Shown: piece by piece, positions 3,233 to 34,251 of the stretch
Layout: the number at the start of each line of letters is the position of its first letter
Numbering within the stretch: the first letter of the stretch is position 1
Virus record (IMG/VR): IMGVR_UViG_2721755658_000005
Coordinates: 1 to 46,563 of that record
Length of the DNA: 46,563 bases
Reading direction: 5' to 3' (one strand)
Origin: a virus
Taxonomy: Duplodnaviria; Heunggongvirae; Uroviricota; Caudoviricetes
The notes under the pieces: model-generated
What the model was told of the DNA's origin: nothing
The model's database searches: none
Seen by the model: only the letters and a program-made list of their open reading frames with translations
Translations under genes and position numbers: made by a program

Positions 3233-3619
3233 ACATTGCGTACAACCTTCCCGATTTACATTTCTGAACTTCCTCCCTTGTTTACCTATTGCGTAATGCG
3301 CCTGCTGCTACCCGGCTGGCGCGTTATCTTTTTACGGACAAACCATCATGCAACCAGAAGGTGAAGTATTAACCGATCATAATGAGCTAATTTGTTCAAG
3401 CTTTATTGAACACATTGCCAACACATTGAATTTAGGAGTGGTGTAGACATGGACAACTAAACCTGCAGCCACGGAGGTATAGCGAGTGAAGCCCTATCCG
3501 ACCTTTTTGGTCAGTAGATAAGATTGATCTTCGTTGATAGAATTTACTTACATCAGCAGTTACATGAAAATAATTTTTGGTGGGAAAAAGATAAGACACT
3601 ACGTAACTATTTGATTTCT

Positions 3620-4080: not shown

Positions 4081-5793
4081 CTAATTGGTCTCTATAATTG
4101 AGCTTAATTCGTTAATGAGCAGGTGAGGGCTCATTTGAGTTAAGTCATACTGCCGCCCCAATTTCTCTTGCATTCCTCCTCGTATTTTCTTTAATAAATA
4201 TTTGCCTTTAATGTTATTAACTGATGTCGGAACTTGGTTTCCAAATAATGTTAGGTGTCGAGGGCATGCTTCCAGTCTCCCCTTATATAAATTATATTTA
4301 ATCACCTCTCTTTTGGATTGAAAATCAGACTGGATGACAACATGATTTTGTGCGGCTATATCAGTAATCCATGTTTGTATATCTTGCACAGAAGAGCCTG
4401 TAACATGAGATAAATGCTCTATTCTGGTAAAATAACTCTCAATATCACTACCTTCAGTAATGAATGGAATGGCGCCACCTCTTTGAATTTCTGCTTTTAC
4501 TATATCTACTTCTTCATCAGTCATAAAATCGCGGTCACGATGAATTATAACCTTGCAATTAGGGGACATTTCCTTAAGAAGGTCAGCAGATACAATTGCT
4601 CCTTGCACATTTGTGCATGTTTTGTAGCTATAGACTGCAGTTCTCTCCATATCAAAACCATTATATTGTAAAAGGGCCTTGAAATATTTTTTATCTCTAT
4701 CTTCAGTGAGAAATATATTCTCCACAACTCCTTCAGTTACTCTATCCAAGTCATTTAAAGCTCCTAAATCTAAGAACATTGATATTTTGTCCAAATCCAT
4801 GCCTTGATTCTGAACATTACCATCTTTCATCCAAATAAAATTTGCCTCTCCATACAATGAATCAATTATATGTTTGCTATGAGTGGAAAGTATAACTTGA
4901 GTTTCTGATTTGTTATTTTCTGATATTAAACTCAATGAGTCAGTGAGAATATATTGATTATCAGGGTGAAGATGAGAATCCGGTTCATCTAAGAGTAATA
5001 ATTTAGGTTTGAAATATACTATATATGCAAATATCTGTAATGTTTGAAGTAATCCAGTTCCCGCCAACTCGATAGGGTAATTTTTCCCACTTGCATTTTC
5101 TTTAAAATTAACGGTTAGATAAGTATCTTTATCCTCTTTGAAATCCACTTCGATTTCTATATCTGGAAATACAACTTGCAGCATGCTATTGAGATTTACC
5201 AAGTGGTTATCTTTGTTCAGATAGTATATGACATTCCTTAAGTATAAATTTGCATCACCACTTGCCACTCCTCTTCTAACTATTGCTGGCGATTTTAATT
5301 CTTCCTTCTGTGAGATACCAGCCAGACCAGGGACATATATACTAAAGAGATTTTTTTCATCGGTGATTACTGAACCGAAGCCGGTATAATCACCGGTTCT
5401 TTCACATGACATATTTCCATGATTTCGTCCCTTAGATATAATTATATTGTATTCTAATTGTCGACCAGCAAGATCATCATATCCAAAAAGACTCAACACA
5501 CTTTGATTGCCAGGCGACCTCGAATTCTTATAAGGTTCGCCGTTCTTTAAAACAGTGAAGTCTGGGGTGATATTATACATTAAAAGTTCAGTAGAGAATG
5601 TTTGTTGACTTTGTTGCCGAGCGGCAATAGCTGCGCATACTGAAAAATGTATAGCTTGCAGAATACTGCTCTTACCTGAACTATTTGCCCCTACTAATAC
5701 ATTTATATCACTAAGGGTGATTTCTGCTGTGTCAATTTTTTTGAATTTACTAACAGACAAAGACTTAATGAACATTTTCTTTTCCTTTTTCAA
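4081..5793 (-). CDS. OLD-family-like ABC-type ATPase with C-terminal TOPRIM-like region; candidate phage-exclusion protein
   Basis: Walker A GANSSGKSS, Walker B LLLLDEPDSHLHP, H-loop-like LSTHS; C-terminal acidic motifs FLTEDRD and IIHRDRD; gene visibly AT-rich compared with flanking DNA. Confidence 0.6.
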   Translation of the reverse strand: MKKEKKMFIKSLSVSKFKKIDTAEITLSDINVLVGANSSGKSSILQAIHFSVCAAIAARQQSQQTFSTELLMYNITPDFTVLKNGEPYKNSRSPGNQSVLSLFGYDDLAGRQLEYNIIISKGRNHGNMSCERTGDYTGFGSVITDEKNLFSIYVPGLAGISQKEELKSPAIVRRGVASGDANLYLRNVIYYLNKDNHLVNLNSMLQVVFPDIEIEVDFKEDKDTYLTVNFKENASGKNYPIELAGTGLLQTLQIFAYIVYFKPKLLLLDEPDSHLHPDNQYILTDSLSLISENNKSETQVILSTHSKHIIDSLYGEANFIWMKDGNVQNQGMDLDKISMFLDLGALNDLDRVTEGVVENIFLTEDRDKKYFKALLQYNGFDMERTAVYSYKTCTNVQGAIVSADLLKEMSPNCKVIIHRDRDFMTDEEVDIVKAEIQRGGAIPFITEGSDIESYFTRIEHLSHVTGSSVQDIQTWITDIAAQNHVVIQSDFQSKREVIKYNLYKGRLEACPRHLTLFGNQVPTSVNNIKGKYLLKKIRGGMQEKLGRQYDLTQMSPHLLINELSSIIETN

Positions 5794-30458: not shown

Positions 30459-30574
30459 TCCTGGTTAAATTTCATTTTTCGCGGGTATAAAAAAACGATG
30501 GGGCGGGCAGTCCGGAAGACGTCAGGCCGCAGGGATTTGACCCGCCCCTCCCCTCAGGCAGTTGAGAATCATTA

Positions 30575-30925
30575 TCACTTCAACCGTTCACGGGCCGTCT
30601 TCGCCTTATGACACGGCCAGCACAGACTCTGCAGATTACAGTCGGCATCAGTGCCGCCATGCGCTTTAGGGATGATGTGGTCAACAGTTTTCGCCTCACG
30701 CACCACACCAGCACGCAGACATAGCTGACACAGGCCTTTGTCACGCTTCAGGACACGCACGCGGATAACATCCCACTTCGAACCATAACCGCGCTGATGA
30801 CGAGATTGTCCTGGCTTGTATTGCTTCCAGCCTTCGCTTTTATGGCTTTCACAATAGCCTGACGGGTCAGTAGTGGTATTGCGGCAACCGCGAACGCGGC
30901 AGGCTTTTGGTGTTCGTGGCGGCAT
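30575..30925 (-). CDS. HNH endonuclease (packaging-associated)
   Basis: Cys-rich 116-aa product with HNH context DHIIPKAHGGTD...CWPCH; sits upstream of the terminase genes. Confidence 0.8.
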   Translation of the reverse strand: MPPRTPKACRVRGCRNTTTDPSGYCESHKSEGWKQYKPGQSRHQRGYGSKWDVIRVRVLKRDKGLCQLCLRAGVVREAKTVDHIIPKAHGGTDADCNLQSLCWPCHKAKTARERLK

Positions 30926-30977
30926 ATCTACTCCAATGAAAAAGCCACCGGTTGATAACCGATGGCTTTGATTGTTC

Positions 30978-31349
30978 TTACCTGTTTTGAAGAATCTCCC
31001 GCTTTCTTACAATACATTCCGTCGTTTCTCTATAGCTGCACACGTGCTCCCGTGAACATTGGTATGTGTGCAATTCGCCGATGGCATCACCGATACCAGT
31101 CAGCACATCTTTTTCATGCAGAATGGTCACCTGCAGACGGTTGGTTGGGCAGATAATGTTTGAATAGTTCATTTTGGTGTCTCCTTTGCTTTCGAGACAC
31201 CAAAATCCCATCACGACACGTTTACCGCCACAAACATTATTGCAGGCACCCATTGAATACCTGCGGGACTGATAAACACAGCCTCCTCCATACGTAGTGA
31301 AACCATTTTCATATCTCCAGTAATGAATTCTTTGAAGAGTCGCAATCAA
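30978..31349 (-). CDS. Hypothetical Cys-rich protein (uncertain; non-ATG start)
   Basis: Tracked ORF begins at a TTG; internal Met alternatives exist; no recognisable family. Confidence 0.25.
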   Translation of the reverse strand: MIATLQRIHYWRYENGFTTYGGGCVYQSRRYSMGACNNVCGGKRVVMGFWCLESKGDTKMNYSNIICPTNRLQVTILHEKDVLTGIGDAIGELHTYQCSREHVCSYRETTECIVRKREILQNR

Positions 31350-31370
31350 TACGACTCACTAATGGGGAGG
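31348..31370 (+). promoter_or_regulatory. T7-type phage RNA polymerase promoter-like motif
   Basis: aatacgactcactaatggggagg against T7 consensus taatacgactcactatagggaga; 14 contiguous matches across -16 to -3, GGG at +1 to +3. Confidence 0.5.
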
Positions 31371-31403
31371 CATGTCCAACGCGTTGGACGAGTTGCCTAC
31401 TTG

Positions 31404-31425
31404 ATTTAGGTGACACTTTAGAAGG
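31404..31425 (+). promoter_or_regulatory. SP6-type phage RNA polymerase promoter-like motif
   Basis: atttaggtgacactttagaagg against SP6 consensus atttaggtgacactatagaag; one mismatch. Confidence 0.5.
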
Positions 31426-31472
31426 ACAGAATGCCTTCCTCACTCAAATAACATCAATTAAGGAGGTTCAAC

Positions 31473-31595
31473 ATGCTTCGTTCCAAAAATCAGTTGACTG
31501 TAATTATTACTACGTCACCTTATGCCGAAGACCTTTTCCGCTTCACTTTGAGCCTGATTCACTTCTACCTGACCGGCTCGCCTCTATCCTTCTGA
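31473..31595 (+). CDS. 40-codon ORF with strong RBS downstream of the tandem phage-type promoter motifs
   Basis: aaggagg 6 nt upstream of ATG; translation MLRSKNQLTVIITTSPYAEDLFRFTLSLIHFYLTGSPLSF; antisense to the Rz1 3' end. Confidence 0.3.
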   Translation: MLRSKNQLTVIITTSPYAEDLFRFTLSLIHFYLTGSPLSF

Positions 31596-31818
31596 TCCCC
31601 GCTTTATCCAGATTGCACTGCCCTAGCGCCGACAACAGACTGACATTCAAATCTAGGCTACCCGCATAAGTCAGCGGTTCAGAAATGGCTGGTTGCGGGG
31701 TTTCAGCGGTCAGACTCGCCGGTAACGGTATAGCCGGAACTGGCACGTAAACTGTCCGCGTACTTCCGCAACCGGTCAGCAGCGGCGGCAGGCACAGGAC
31801 GTGAAGCACAATCATCAT
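31543..31818 (-). CDS. Rz1-like o-spanin lipoprotein (overlapping Rz in another frame)
   Basis: Internal start gives MMIVLHVLCLPPLLTGC with lipobox LTGC; Pro-rich; overlaps the Rz 3' region. Confidence 0.6.
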   Translation of the reverse strand: MMIVLHVLCLPPLLTGCGSTRTVYVPVPAIPLPASLTAETPQPAISEPLTYAGSLDLNVSLLSALGQCNLDKAGIRRIEASRSGRSESGSK

Positions 31819-32095
31819 CCGCAACAGCCACTTTGATATCTTCCTGGGTTCTCTGTGACTCCAGTGCGATCTGCTGTTTTGCATGCTGGTTAACCTCTAT
31901 AACTGTATTGACGATTTGCAGTGATTGCAGGACGTTACGGGTAATGGCTGTTGCAGATTCAACATTTTGTACAGCCTCATCAGCACGTTTCTTTTCGTGC
32001 TGATATTTGCTGTAGTAGTGGTTGGCAGACCAGATGAAAGAACCGATGACAGTAAAGAAGAATGCAGCGATAACCAGCTTATAGCTCAACTTCAT
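31703..32095 (-). CDS. Rz-like i-spanin
   Basis: 130-aa product with N-terminal TM helix then coiled-coil; directly after the endolysin gene. Confidence 0.7.
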   Translation of the reverse strand: MKLSYKLVIAAFFFTVIGSFIWSANHYYSKYQHEKKRADEAVQNVESATAITRNVLQSLQIVNTVIEVNQHAKQQIALESQRTQEDIKVAVADDDCASRPVPAAAADRLRKYADSLRASSGYTVTGESDR

Positions 32096-32555
32096 TTACC
32101 ACCCCACCAGCCTCTTTAAACCGGGAAATCAGGTCACCGATTTTATGTTCATACTGACCGTAACCTGCACCAGGTAACGACGCCCAGATATTGCTGCAAC
32201 GATCGATAGCCTGACGGATATCACCGCGATCAATCATCGGTAAAGCGCCACGCTCTTTAATCTGCTGCAATGCCACTGCGTCCTGGCTTTTGGGGGAGAA
32301 GTCTTTCAAACCAAGCTGTTTACGGTAAGCATCCCACCAGCGTGAAAGAAGCTGATAACGTCCGGCGGCTGTTGATTTGAGTTTGGGGTTTAACGTGACA
32401 AGTTTGCGAGGGTGATCAGAGTAATCAGTAAACAGTTCGCCGCCAACAATAACATCATAACCGTGATTACGTGTCGGTTGTCGCCCGTTATCCGTTCCTT
32501 CTGACCATGCCACCATATCGAGGAAAGCTTTACGCTGGGAATTTAGTACCTGCAT
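32079..32555 (-). CDS. R: Endolysin (lambda R-like lytic transglycosylase)
   Basis: NQRKAFLDMVAWSEGTDNGRQPTRNHGYDVIVGGELFTDYSDHP closely matches lambda R as recalled. Confidence 0.9.
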   Translation of the reverse strand: MQVLNSQRKAFLDMVAWSEGTDNGRQPTRNHGYDVIVGGELFTDYSDHPRKLVTLNPKLKSTAAGRYQLLSRWWDAYRKQLGLKDFSPKSQDAVALQQIKERGALPMIDRGDIRQAIDRCSNIWASLPGAGYGQYEHKIGDLISRFKEAGGVVNEVEL

Positions 32556-32558
32556 AAA

Positions 32559-32885
32559 TTACTCCTTAGAGCCACCAAACTTATTACCGATTACTCTCAT
32601 TGCAGCCCCACGAATAGCATCAACACCGATCAGCCCCACCCCACCACCAATGGCAACAGATAGTGATTTAGGCCATCCGACATACTCAAGAGCGGATGCA
32701 AAAGTCAGCGTCAGAGCGCCACAGAGTAGAATTTCGAGTGTTTTTCGCTTCCAGCCGCCACCACCGCCAAAATAGGCAATACGTAAACCAGCCATAACAA
32801 TCGACATAATCACTGCGCCCAGCGGTGTGTCTCCACGCCACCAGCTCTGGACCAACTCCAGCCAGGTATTTGGGTTATGAGGCAT
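32559..32885 (-). CDS. Holin
   Basis: 108-aa product with two or three TM segments, immediately upstream of the endolysin gene. Confidence 0.7.
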   Translation of the reverse strand: MPHNPNTWLELVQSWWRGDTPLGAVIMSIVMAGLRIAYFGGGGGWKRKTLEILLCGALTLTFASALEYVGWPKSLSVAIGGGVGLIGVDAIRGAAMRVIGNKFGGSKE

Positions 32886-33036
32886 TTGTAGTTATCTCTC
32901 ACCTCGCTGATACAGCAGGTGCAAATTGAGGGAACATCATGTACAGCAAATTAGAAGCGGAAACGTCAAAGAAGCCGAACCAATGGATAACTGCGGAATA
33001 GACCAGGACCAACGAATCCCCATCCCCAGAAACGAC

Positions 33037-33059
33037 AAAACCCGCTCGACGGCGGGTTT
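33037..33059 (-). terminator. Candidate late-operon terminator (tR'-like) upstream of the lysis cassette
   Basis: Minus-strand hairpin aacccgc...gcgggtt followed by uuuugucguuucug; lies between Q and the holin gene. Confidence 0.45.
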
Positions 33060-33231
33060 AAGCTGTGTGGCGAAGTAACCACTCTTAACACAGTAATCTA
33101 GAAAATGCGGACCGCGTTAGTGATTTTTATCTGTTTTTCCATTATTTTTTTGCCACACAGCTTAAAACGAAAAATAAAGCAGGCGTTGCCAAACCTCACG
33201 GTGACAGTTGGCTTAGAATGAGGACATATTT

Positions 33232-34251
33232 TTGGATAAGTTTGATGAGATTCATGTAGACATTGAATCTGAGCAGCAAGCCTTCGATTTGCTTGAAAGC
33301 TATCTTGATGGTTATGGTTTACCTGACAGTTTAAGTTTCAACGGATGGCCAAACCTTACCATCAGATTAACCGGTGAAAAATTCAACAGATCGCTAACAC
33401 CTTCAGTTATGAAGGGATTTGTTGAAATGCAAGCTCAAATCAACAAATCATATGCCCTTGCCAAGTACGGTGTCCCTGACGTCCGCAAACTGACCAAAGA
33501 AGAACTTGATGCCCTAGAAATAGAAGTTACGGTAGAACAGGGTTCTTCAATAGTAGAAATCAACATTGATGGCTTTTTAACCAAACTCACACAGGAACTT
33601 GTTGGTAAAATGAACGCAACTGAGATCATGTTTACTGTTCTCGGCGCAGCAGTCATCTGGGGCGGAGTAACAGTATTTAAACGGTTCTTGGACAACCGTA
33701 AAGATATTCGCCTTGCAGAAATTGCTAAGGATGGAGAGAAAGAACATCTCCGGACTATGCAGATCATGAGCGAGCAAGAAACTAAACGCCTGCGGGTTAT
33801 TTCAGAAATGATTGCGGAAAAACCACTTCTCGATAACATGGACCGTATGTCGTATGACGCTAAAACCCAAATGGTCAAATCCTTTGTGCGTTCAGATAAC
33901 GCTCAAATTGATGGCGTTACTATTGATTCTGAAATGGCGAAAGAGTTGGTTACGAATGCTCGTAGACGTTCATCAGAAATGAGGATTGATGGTATTTACC
34001 GAATTGAAGAAGTCAATAATACTGACCCAGAGAGTTTCAAAGTTAAGGTCCGACGCGTAGATACCGACCAACGTCTAACCTGCGTAGTTCAGGATGTTTT
34101 CCTTGATGAATCCGGAAACAAAGAAGCATTGCAGCGAGCTGAGTGGGAAAGAAAGCCTGTACATTTGAGCATTAACGCAAAACACGTCGATGGTGACATT
34201 AAGTCAGCAGTAATTCTCTATGTTCGAGATGTGGAACAAAAGCCCGAGTAA
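33232..34251 (+). CDS. Hypothetical single-pass membrane protein (moron between Q and lysis genes)
   Basis: 339-aa ORF with TTG start; central TM helix IMFTVLGAAVIWGGVTVF; opposite strand to the late operon; no recognised family. Confidence 0.5.
   Translation: MDKFDEIHVDIESEQQAFDLLESYLDGYGLPDSLSFNGWPNLTIRLTGEKFNRSLTPSVMKGFVEMQAQINKSYALAKYGVPDVRKLTKEELDALEIEVTVEQGSSIVEINIDGFLTKLTQELVGKMNATEIMFTVLGAAVIWGGVTVFKRFLDNRKDIRLAEIAKDGEKEHLRTMQIMSEQETKRLRVISEMIAEKPLLDNMDRMSYDAKTQMVKSFVRSDNAQIDGVTIDSEMAKELVTNARRRSSEMRIDGIYRIEEVNNTDPESFKVKVRRVDTDQRLTCVVQDVFLDESGNKEALQRAEWERKPVHLSINAKHVDGDIKSAVILYVRDVEQKPE

Follow-up and report, generated by a model that had tools for sequence, protein, structure and literature searches.

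Why would a temperate prophage carry, beside its lysis genes, close matches to the promoters of phage RNA polymerases that it does not itself encode? The question is raised by a segment of the IMG/VR virus record IMGVR_UViG_2721755658_000005 (Caudoviricetes), of which positions 1 to 46,563 were analyzed and are referred to here as the window. The whole 46,563-nt window is an Escherichia coli prophage, that of a temperate, SfV/HK97-like myovirus. Just past its lysis genes, on the + strand and pointing back into the minus-strand late operon, lies the cassette considered here. The original prediction for this segment was of a promoter trap that stays silent until a T7-like or SP6-like phage infects. 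Every part of that description, namely the two promoter motifs, the Shine-Dalgarno (SD) sequence AAGGAGG, the 6-nt spacer, the ATG and the 40-codon open reading frame (ORF), was found in place and on the + strand.

The architecture of the cassette is confirmed, and a trap function is probable judging from the comparisons below. The explanation to which we give slightly better than even chances is that of an expression cassette triggered by infection, in effect a transcriptional tripwire that the prophage carries as a moron and that is probably defensive. The idea of a trap stands on promoters that score like genuine ones, on the lack of a cognate polymerase gene and of a predicted sigma-70 promoter, on a real ORF and on comparative genomics that agrees with a trap adjusted to local phages; what does not stand is the proposed read-through into a gene for a 339-aa protein farther along.

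Two promoters for heterologous polymerases

The upstream motif, P1 (CAATACGACTCACTAATGGGGAG; 31347-31369, + strand), corresponds to a Studiervirinae promoter of the Berlinvirus/T7 type, and the downstream motif, P2 (ATTTAGGTGACACTTTAGAAGGA; 31404-31426, + strand), to a Molineuxvirinae promoter of the SP6/Zindervirus type. Each extends from -17 to +6, with the predicted +1 at the G of 31364 and of 31421, respectively. Position weight matrices were built from promoters annotated in the records of T7 and Yepe2, and from promoters of SP6 and K1-5 collected by regular-expression search; the score ranges of a phage's own promoters are leave-one-out values. P1 scored 32.7 bits with the Yepe2/Berlinvirus matrix, where Yepe2's own promoters score 22.1-36.5 (median 33.5), and 26.2 bits with the T7 matrix, where T7's own score 22.0-38.7. 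P2 scored 31.4 bits with the SP6 matrix, for which SP6's own median is 32.5. Since no other site in the 46.5-kb window, on either strand, exceeds 16.4 bits, chance resemblance is excluded. In score, P1 and P2 equal genuine promoters of heterologous phage polymerases.

Direct comparison gives the same assignment. P1 matches phi17 of Yepe2 (CAATACGACTCACTAtTGGGGAGGC) at 24/25 positions and phi17 of the E. coli phage PhiV-1 (AATCAATACGACTCACTAATGGGaAGGC) at 27/28, and it has an 18-mer in common with T7 phi1.1A. The TAAT that P1 has in place of TATA had made it look like a flawed T7 promoter, but this is the normal Berlinvirus form, as the two phi17 promoters illustrate. The reference forms for the Molineuxvirinae were ATTTAGGTGACACTATAGAAG (SP6) and ATTTACTGGACACTATAGAAG (K1-5). 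P2 differs from SP6 by a single mismatch, a T for A at -3 (31418), and it matches a promoter of the Salmonella Zindervirus GRNsp51 at 31 of 32 positions, flanks included. The two kinds of polymerase had been called unrelated; the T7 and SP6 enzymes are in fact homologous and differ in specificity.

As had been proposed, the prophage appears to lack a polymerase of either type. No RNA polymerase was found among nine prophage ORFs scanned with Pfam (TerL, 577 aa, lies outside those nine), and the longest ORF of the prophage, at 610 aa, encodes a tail protein. A sigma-70 promoter upstream of or inside the cassette was considered and rejected, none being predicted there.

Transcript leaders and hairpins

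A transcript from P1 would begin with a long imperfect stem-loop, hairpin 1 (31365-31398, + strand), which starts at +2 and has the core palindrome GTCCAACGCGTTGGAC (31374-31389). Across 14 variants 97% of the alignment cells in this stem are paired, against 39-55% in controls with slid partner columns. There are compensatory double changes at three pairs, and several G.U pairs have become G-C or A-U. RNAalifold predicts the same stem, and the single-sequence fold has an energy of -15.1 kcal/mol (z = -2.0). Because on the minus strand its many G.U pairs would turn into C.A mismatches, hairpin 1 fits + strand RNA only, and the same mismatches led us to reject both a structure in the minus-strand late mRNA and a protein operator.

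Hairpin 2 (31421-31438, + strand), with the stem GAAGG/CCTTC, would occupy +1 to +18 of the P2 transcript, of which it is the minimum-free-energy structure, leaving the SD free. It is 100% paired in the 14 variants, and its A-U to G.U changes are valid on the + strand only. Both hairpins covary as + strand RNA. The annotated promoters of phage T3 that are followed by RNase III sites have the same layout of promoter and then stem-loop. From 31439 to 31472 (+ strand) the leader is predicted to be unstructured; it holds the SD AAGGAGG (31460-31466) and the 6-nt spacer TTCAAC. It is near-invariant among variants, but this conservation is ascertainment-biased because part of the leader served as the search pattern. 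RNAalifold also suggested sequestration of the SD by GCCUUC, which was rejected, as single-sequence folds form hairpin 2 with the SD free. Rfam has no match in 30500-33500 even at a permissive threshold.

The 40-codon ORF

The presumed payload is the ORF MLRSKNQLTVIITTSPYAEDLFRFTLSLIHFYLTGSPLSF (31473-31595, + strand), which opens with the ATG at 31473, 6 nt after AAGGAGG, and overlaps in antisense the last 53 nt of lysC (31543-31818, minus strand). Every one of the 23 distinct nucleotide versions has an intact frame of exactly 40 codons. In codons 21-41 the alternative codons comprise nine synonymous and two non-synonymous changes, although this part overlaps lysC, and the stop varies in place from TGA to TAA. 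The constraint is attributable to the + strand ORF and not to lysC, because third positions of the ORF are second positions of lysC. These patterns identify the ORF as a real protein-coding gene, with purifying selection acting in the + frame on its C-terminal half. Codons 2-20 are hypervariable, with 26 non-synonymous and two synonymous changes, and fall into two main classes.

A protein homology search with the 40-aa peptide returned only unannotated E. coli copies. PADLOC-DB has no match for this peptide or for the 339-aa protein, which is weak evidence since models for peptides so short are scarce. A type I toxin-antitoxin system does not fit what was found: there is no sigma-70-like promoter and no Rfam family, and the hydrophobicity of the E. 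coli peptide is modest. The peptide may be toxic or interfere with infection.

Occurrence of the element in E. coli

The stretch is 100% identical to the finished chromosome of E. coli strain H7. A search of genomes, as had been suggested for the motif pair, found the 271-bp element in 632 of 5426 complete E. coli genomes (11.6%) at 83-100% identity, mostly 83-86%, and in Shigella phage SfIV at 99.6% identity. Carriers were isolated from humans, cattle, chickens, deer, a marsupial and wastewater. The location is constant, between the lysis genes and the HNH/terminase genes, and most E. coli copies have the gene for the iss/bor lipoprotein in the same orientation, about 170 nt further downstream. 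The element appears to be absent from species representatives, since scans of one-genome-per-species contigs with an ORF pattern and with a tandem-promoter pattern gave zero matches.

Variation was followed in viral contigs scanned with a leader pattern that excludes both promoters, which yielded 91 loci and 38 distinct variants. In the commonest E. coli variant P2 is ATTTACTGGACACTATAGAAGGA, the exact K1-5/K1E-type Vectrevirus consensus. It scores 36.8 bits with the K1-5 matrix, where the maximum for K1-5 itself is 35.9, and genomes of Vectrevirus, which are E. coli phages, each have about eight promoters matching it. The SP6-type P2 is seen in the window and SfIV and the K1-5 type in most E. 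coli copies. The four-base switch between the two types keeps a high score, which random four-change mutants rarely do (P = 0.0002). The P1 variants match phi9 or phi17 of Berlinvirus. Promoter class changes from one variant of the element to another, and it does so in parallel with real phages.

P1 has the lowest nucleotide diversity (0.041) and is the least variable segment outside the leader, compared with 0.10-0.18 in the flanks. P2 has a diversity of 0.080, concentrated at -12 to -10, and the spacers have the highest values (0.15-0.18).

Two arrangements among the variants record rearrangement around the cassette. In iss-linked copies (loci L003, L004 and L005, at about 3270-3400) a remnant of about 120 nt of the lysC 3' end lies between the small ORF and iss, and these prophages use another Rz/Rz1 pair, of the RzpD type, further on. 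The remnant records a swap of the lysis module that kept the cassette. At locus L056 (696-1130, minus strand of the locus) the 5' end of the HNH gene and the cassette are tandemly duplicated; the first copy has no ATG and a degraded P2, and the second is intact.

Klebsiella cassettes and the wider family

Weak matches led to three Klebsiella temperate phages, Kp4864-1, Lambdavirus PDP110P1 and ST13-OXA48phi12.5, which carry a homologous cassette at the corresponding site, where it lies antisense to the 3' end of lysC. Their P1, TATTAAGACTCACTATAGGAAGA, has the form of the promoters of TVB03, a T7-like phage of Klebsiella whose genome has 11 copies of (A/T)ATTA(A/C)GACTCACTATAGGGAGA. The hairpin GTCCAACACGTTGGAC is kept unchanged. 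P2, TAATAGTGGCGAGTATAGA, equals the promoter of F4M1D, a Molineuxvirinae phage of Klebsiella that has eight intergenic copies of it on the + strand. There is also a P3, TTTAATGTTACAGGAGTAGGAA, a motif of KP34 and Drulisvirus. It is found at 96-100% identity in most of 170 matched Klebsiella phage records, and KP34 has it at three sites, one of them directly behind the polymerase gene. The cassettes end with AAGGAGG and a hydrophobic ORF of 37-38 aa. A fourth motif, AAGTTACACAATAGAA, is conserved in Klebsiella cassettes between P3 and the SD (L104, 1385-1402; L106, 1630-1650). It resembles the SP6-class core at 15-17 bits, and no matching phage group was found for it.

A scan of the family anchored on the conserved lysC 3' region just past the ORF stop found 129 loci with 82 distinct sequences, which form 30 clusters beyond the E. 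coli type. Thirty-one representatives were scored with eight matrices (T7, Yepe2, T3, K11, TVB03, SP6, K1-5 and F4M1D) at a cut-off of 15 bits. All 41 matches at or above the cut-off point toward the small ORF, and the opposite strand has none. The usual order is a Studiervirinae-type promoter followed about 45 nt later by a Molineuxvirinae-type one. The same P2 can accompany a P1 of differing class, whether K11-, TVB03-, T7- or Berlin-like. A strong SD and a homologous or analogous ORF of 32-41 aa that ends at the same stop are present in 27 of the 30 non-E. coli clusters. The small peptides make up several families, none with a known family as relative, and the Klebsiella peptides that were scored carry a hydrophobic helix. 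The promoter classes found in named phages match the hosts of those phages, and the same architecture, to judge from these comparisons, recurs with host-matched promoter types in prophages of E. coli and Klebsiella.

Downstream region and prophage setting

On the + strand beyond the cassette, the gene for the 339-aa protein (phrog_6191; 33232-34251) lies between the Q antiterminator and the holin. Read-through from the cassette promoters had been expected to reach it, but this is unlikely because a predicted host-type terminator hairpin (33104-33118, + strand) stands just before the gene and is followed directly by TATCTGTTTTT (33128-33138, + strand), which resembles the class II pause/termination signal of T7 RNA polymerase. 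ATCTGTT occurs 13 times in the window, against about six expected.

The late operon runs on the minus strand through the holin (32559-32885), the endolysin (32079-32555), an Rz-like DUF2570 protein (31703-32095) and the Rz1/LysC o-spanin gene (31543-31818), which was identified by Pfam LysC (2e-16) and RefSeq annotation and lies outside the cassette as context. After these come a 64-aa gene (phrog_31491; 30978-31172, minus strand), the intact HNH endonuclease gene (30575-30925, minus strand) and the small and large terminase genes. A remnant of an HNH endonuclease 5' end (31211-31345, minus strand) adjoins the cassette, with the 64-aa gene between it and the intact HNH gene; SfIV and most E. 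coli copies have the true HNH start at the position homologous to the remnant. A 570-aa protein encoded toward one end of the prophage (4081-5793, minus strand) has AAA_15/AAA_21 (AbiEii/OLD-like ATPase) and SMC_N domains and is a candidate defense gene.

How the cassette may work

On the simplest account, the only enzymes in the cell that transcribe the cassette are the polymerases of invading T7-like phages. Tandem promoters from two or three polymerase lineages are an arrangement that no single phage would use. In the mechanism that we propose, a virulent T7-like phage (Autographiviridae) would infect the lysogen and make its own single-subunit RNA polymerase. Depending on its specificity, this polymerase would read P1 (Berlinvirus/T7 specificity) or P2 (SP6 specificity here, K1-5 in most E. 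coli copies). Transcription of the cassette by foreign polymerases in vivo is what we infer from its promoters, and in the uninfected lysogen the cassette is presumably silent because no host-type promoter is predicted. Each transcript would open with a stem-loop of the kind that T7-group mRNAs have at their 5' ends and would expose a consensus ribosome-binding site, so that the 40-residue peptide would be abundant in infected cells only. The peptide would then harm the cycle of the invader, most plausibly by membrane damage or by premature death or lysis of the cell, that is, by abortive infection.

A defensive, abortive-infection role with the small peptide as effector seems most likely because the tandem promoters come from several lineages, their classes match the host and the cassette occupies a classic prophage moron site. 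Its site and orientation are those of known lysogenic-conversion and defense morons. A broader proposal, to which we would assign a little under an even chance, is that the family constitutes a widespread and hitherto unrecognized immune device of enterobacterial temperate phages in which DNA is the sensor: a multi-lineage promoter array, swapping to track the phages of the host, drives an abortive membrane peptide. The lineages covered would be the T7/Berlin/K11/T3-like, the SP6/K1-5/F4M1D-like and the KP34-like, with the same tentative standing.

Several observations weigh against an infection-triggered cassette. The P2 of the window has the non-consensus T at -3, a base that is absent from every SP6 or K1-5 promoter collected for the comparison. 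Decay-like variants (CACTACAG and GACAGTATAGG) do not outscore random mutants. The variants are related by descent, which means that their counts are counts of non-independent events, and among the IMG/VR cassettes the host genus is established for the named Klebsiella phages only. The N-terminal half of the ORF is without purifying selection. The peptide and its relatives gave nothing meaningful against Pfam, PADLOC, PHROGs and NCBIfam, and the hydrophobicity of the E. coli peptides is no more than moderate (best 15-aa window 1.1-1.35, versus 1.9-2.5 in Klebsiella). T7-like phages degrade host DNA, as T7 does through genes 3 and 6, and this would leave the cassette limited time to act. The case for a tripwire is, moreover, one made from sequence analysis throughout.

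Alternative explanations

It is conceivable that the payload is not the peptide and that the invading polymerase either boosts downstream + strand genes, such as iss/bor or other cargo, or swamps the lysis genes of the prophage with antisense transcripts. Polymerases of the T7 type have high processivity, some 600 E. coli genomes have iss in the same orientation about 170 nt downstream, and a transcript would run antisense through Rz/Rz1, endolysin and holin. We consider this improbable, as the window, SfIV and the Klebsiella cassettes have no iss yet keep the SD and the small ORF. The consensus SD is positioned for the small ORF, which is under purifying selection, and in the window the terminator and the class II-like signal precede the next + strand gene. 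Less probable than this is a decoy or piracy element, whose promoters would titrate the polymerase of the invader or act like the T7 primary origin (phi1.1A/B) to recruit its replication machinery. Tandem same-strand promoters are found at the T7 origin, the 18-mer of P1 is common with phi1.1A, and origin-derived phage-encoded resistance ("Per") is an established engineered strategy (PMC3530524). However, one chromosomal copy cannot titrate an abundant polymerase, the DNA after the tandem promoters (GC about 0.40-0.43) has no marked AT-rich tract of the kind compared at the T7 primary origin, and the promoters stem from three subfamilies with differing replication systems. Neither version explains the conserved consensus SD and the selected ORF. 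About as doubtful is the proposal that the cassette belongs to the lysis module of the prophage itself, with the peptide or an antisense transcript regulating the spanin or the timing of lysis. The ORF does always overlap the lysC 3' end, the cassette travels with this spanin type, and one peptide has a faint holin match (E = 0.28). Such a role cannot account for the 41 of 41 oriented matches to eight phage matrices or for the fit between the promoters and phages that infect the same host. The cassette runs antisense to the late operon, no host-type promoter is predicted for it, and the iss-linked copies keep it intact though the overlapped lysC is a remnant.

The remaining explanations concern where the DNA came from. 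A neutral fossil, that is, fragments of Autographiviridae DNA gained by recombination and now functionless, has a slightly lower probability again. The 31/32 match of P2 to one Zindervirus promoter includes 11 flanking bases and suggests direct sequence exchange, and some variants look decayed. Against a fossil, the homology to Autographiviridae phages is limited to promoter-sized pieces, and E. coli and Klebsiella agree in the order and orientation of promoters that come from two or three subfamilies. The promoters vary less than their flanks, the hairpins covary, the ORF is under selection, and the element is present in 11.6% of complete E. coli genomes. Cloning-vector or engineered DNA, or a contaminant of the assembly, has a negligible probability. 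T7 and SP6 promoters are classic vector parts, and the core of hairpin 1, CCAACGCGTTGG (31376-31387), is what we take to be the BstXI/MluI site of pGEM polylinkers, which lies between the T7 and SP6 promoters there. We take this likeness as a coincidence of two palindromes because most natural variants read CCAACACGTTGG or CTCACACGTGAG. A vector origin, which had been named as an outcome that would overturn the trap, is refuted by the presence of the element in the finished H7 chromosome, in the 632 E. coli genomes and in phage SfIV, always in the same place between lysis and packaging genes. Unlike those of vectors, the promoters are co-oriented and of the Berlinvirus type and the SP6 type with T at -3, and the copies show natural divergence with compensatory changes.

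Relation to known systems

The closest parallels to the infection-triggered cassette in layout are the late and middle promoter units of Autographiviridae, such as the phi10-type units of T7 and those of T3. Like the cassette, these have 23-bp promoters of genuine level with a stem-loop at or just after +1, and a strong SD, which in the cassette is the AAGGAGG 6 nt before the ATG. In contrast to them, the cassette resides in a temperate prophage without a polymerase, mixes promoters of different lineages and has nothing beyond its promoters that is homologous to those phages. In the phage T3 record (L171, 32757-32779) a T7 promoter sequence is annotated upstream of gene 17 and is unused by the T3 polymerase, which is another natural case of a promoter for the polymerase of a different lineage in a genome unable to read it.

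In an engineered suicide system of Lactococcus, a phage-inducible promoter drives a lethal gene. The logic of such systems is the same, silence until the transcription apparatus of the invader switches on a harmful product. They are man-made, however, and use an activator-dependent promoter of one phage, whereas the cassette is natural and multiplexed, with polymerase-specific promoters and a putative payload. Engineered phage-triggered suicide systems are among the work cited in PMC3530524.

Among natural elements, the late promoters of satellite P4 are activated by P2 Ogr, and promoters of the integrated virophage mavirus match the late promoters of the giant virus CroV, with an outcome that protects the host population. 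In both cases, as proposed for the cassette, a superinfecting virus supplies the transcription system that reads the promoters of an integrated element. P4 and mavirus are satellites that replicate and are packaged by means of the invader, whereas the cassette is about 250 bp with a micro-ORF and shows no sign of mobilization.

Prophage exclusion morons and related accessory units, for which lambda Rex, P22 Sie, e14 Lit, F PifA (which acts against T7) and the type I toxin-antitoxin peptides serve as comparison, resemble the cassette as accessory units opposite the late genes, with a small, partly hydrophobic peptide as its likely effector. The known exclusion systems use protein or RNA sensors of phage proteins or of host shut-off and have their own host promoters. 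In the cassette the sensor would instead be promoter DNA, and there is no antisense small RNA, sigma-70 promoter, or Rfam or PADLOC match. The lambda bor/iss moron has the same site, just past Rz/Rz1, and the same orientation. It differs in that it encodes a lipoprotein and has a promoter of its own, from which it is expressed in the lysogen, and the window has no iss.

Full-text searches of the literature turned up no account of promoters for foreign phage polymerases in prophages, nor of any natural trap that such a polymerase triggers. Work on Gifsy gipd474 was considered as a precedent and set aside, as it concerns an ATPase and an SP6 tailspike and not promoters. We rate a natural polymerase-triggered cassette as new in kind for bacterial anti-phage biology.

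Such cassettes are carried by ST131, O157 and Klebsiella clinical clones. If the interpretation is correct, they could explain unexplained resistance of lysogens to T7-like and to K1-5/KP34-like therapeutic phages, and they would provide natural, orthogonal, infection-gated expression parts together with a set of unstudied peptides of 32-41 residues. Prophages and the bacteria that carry them would be detecting a whole family of virulent phages through polymerase-promoter specificity, a feature that is hard for phages to change. This would be a new principle of sensing, in which DNA is read by the enzyme of the invader rather than a protein binding a phage product, and the arms race that it predicts would be visible in the specificity of both promoters and polymerases.

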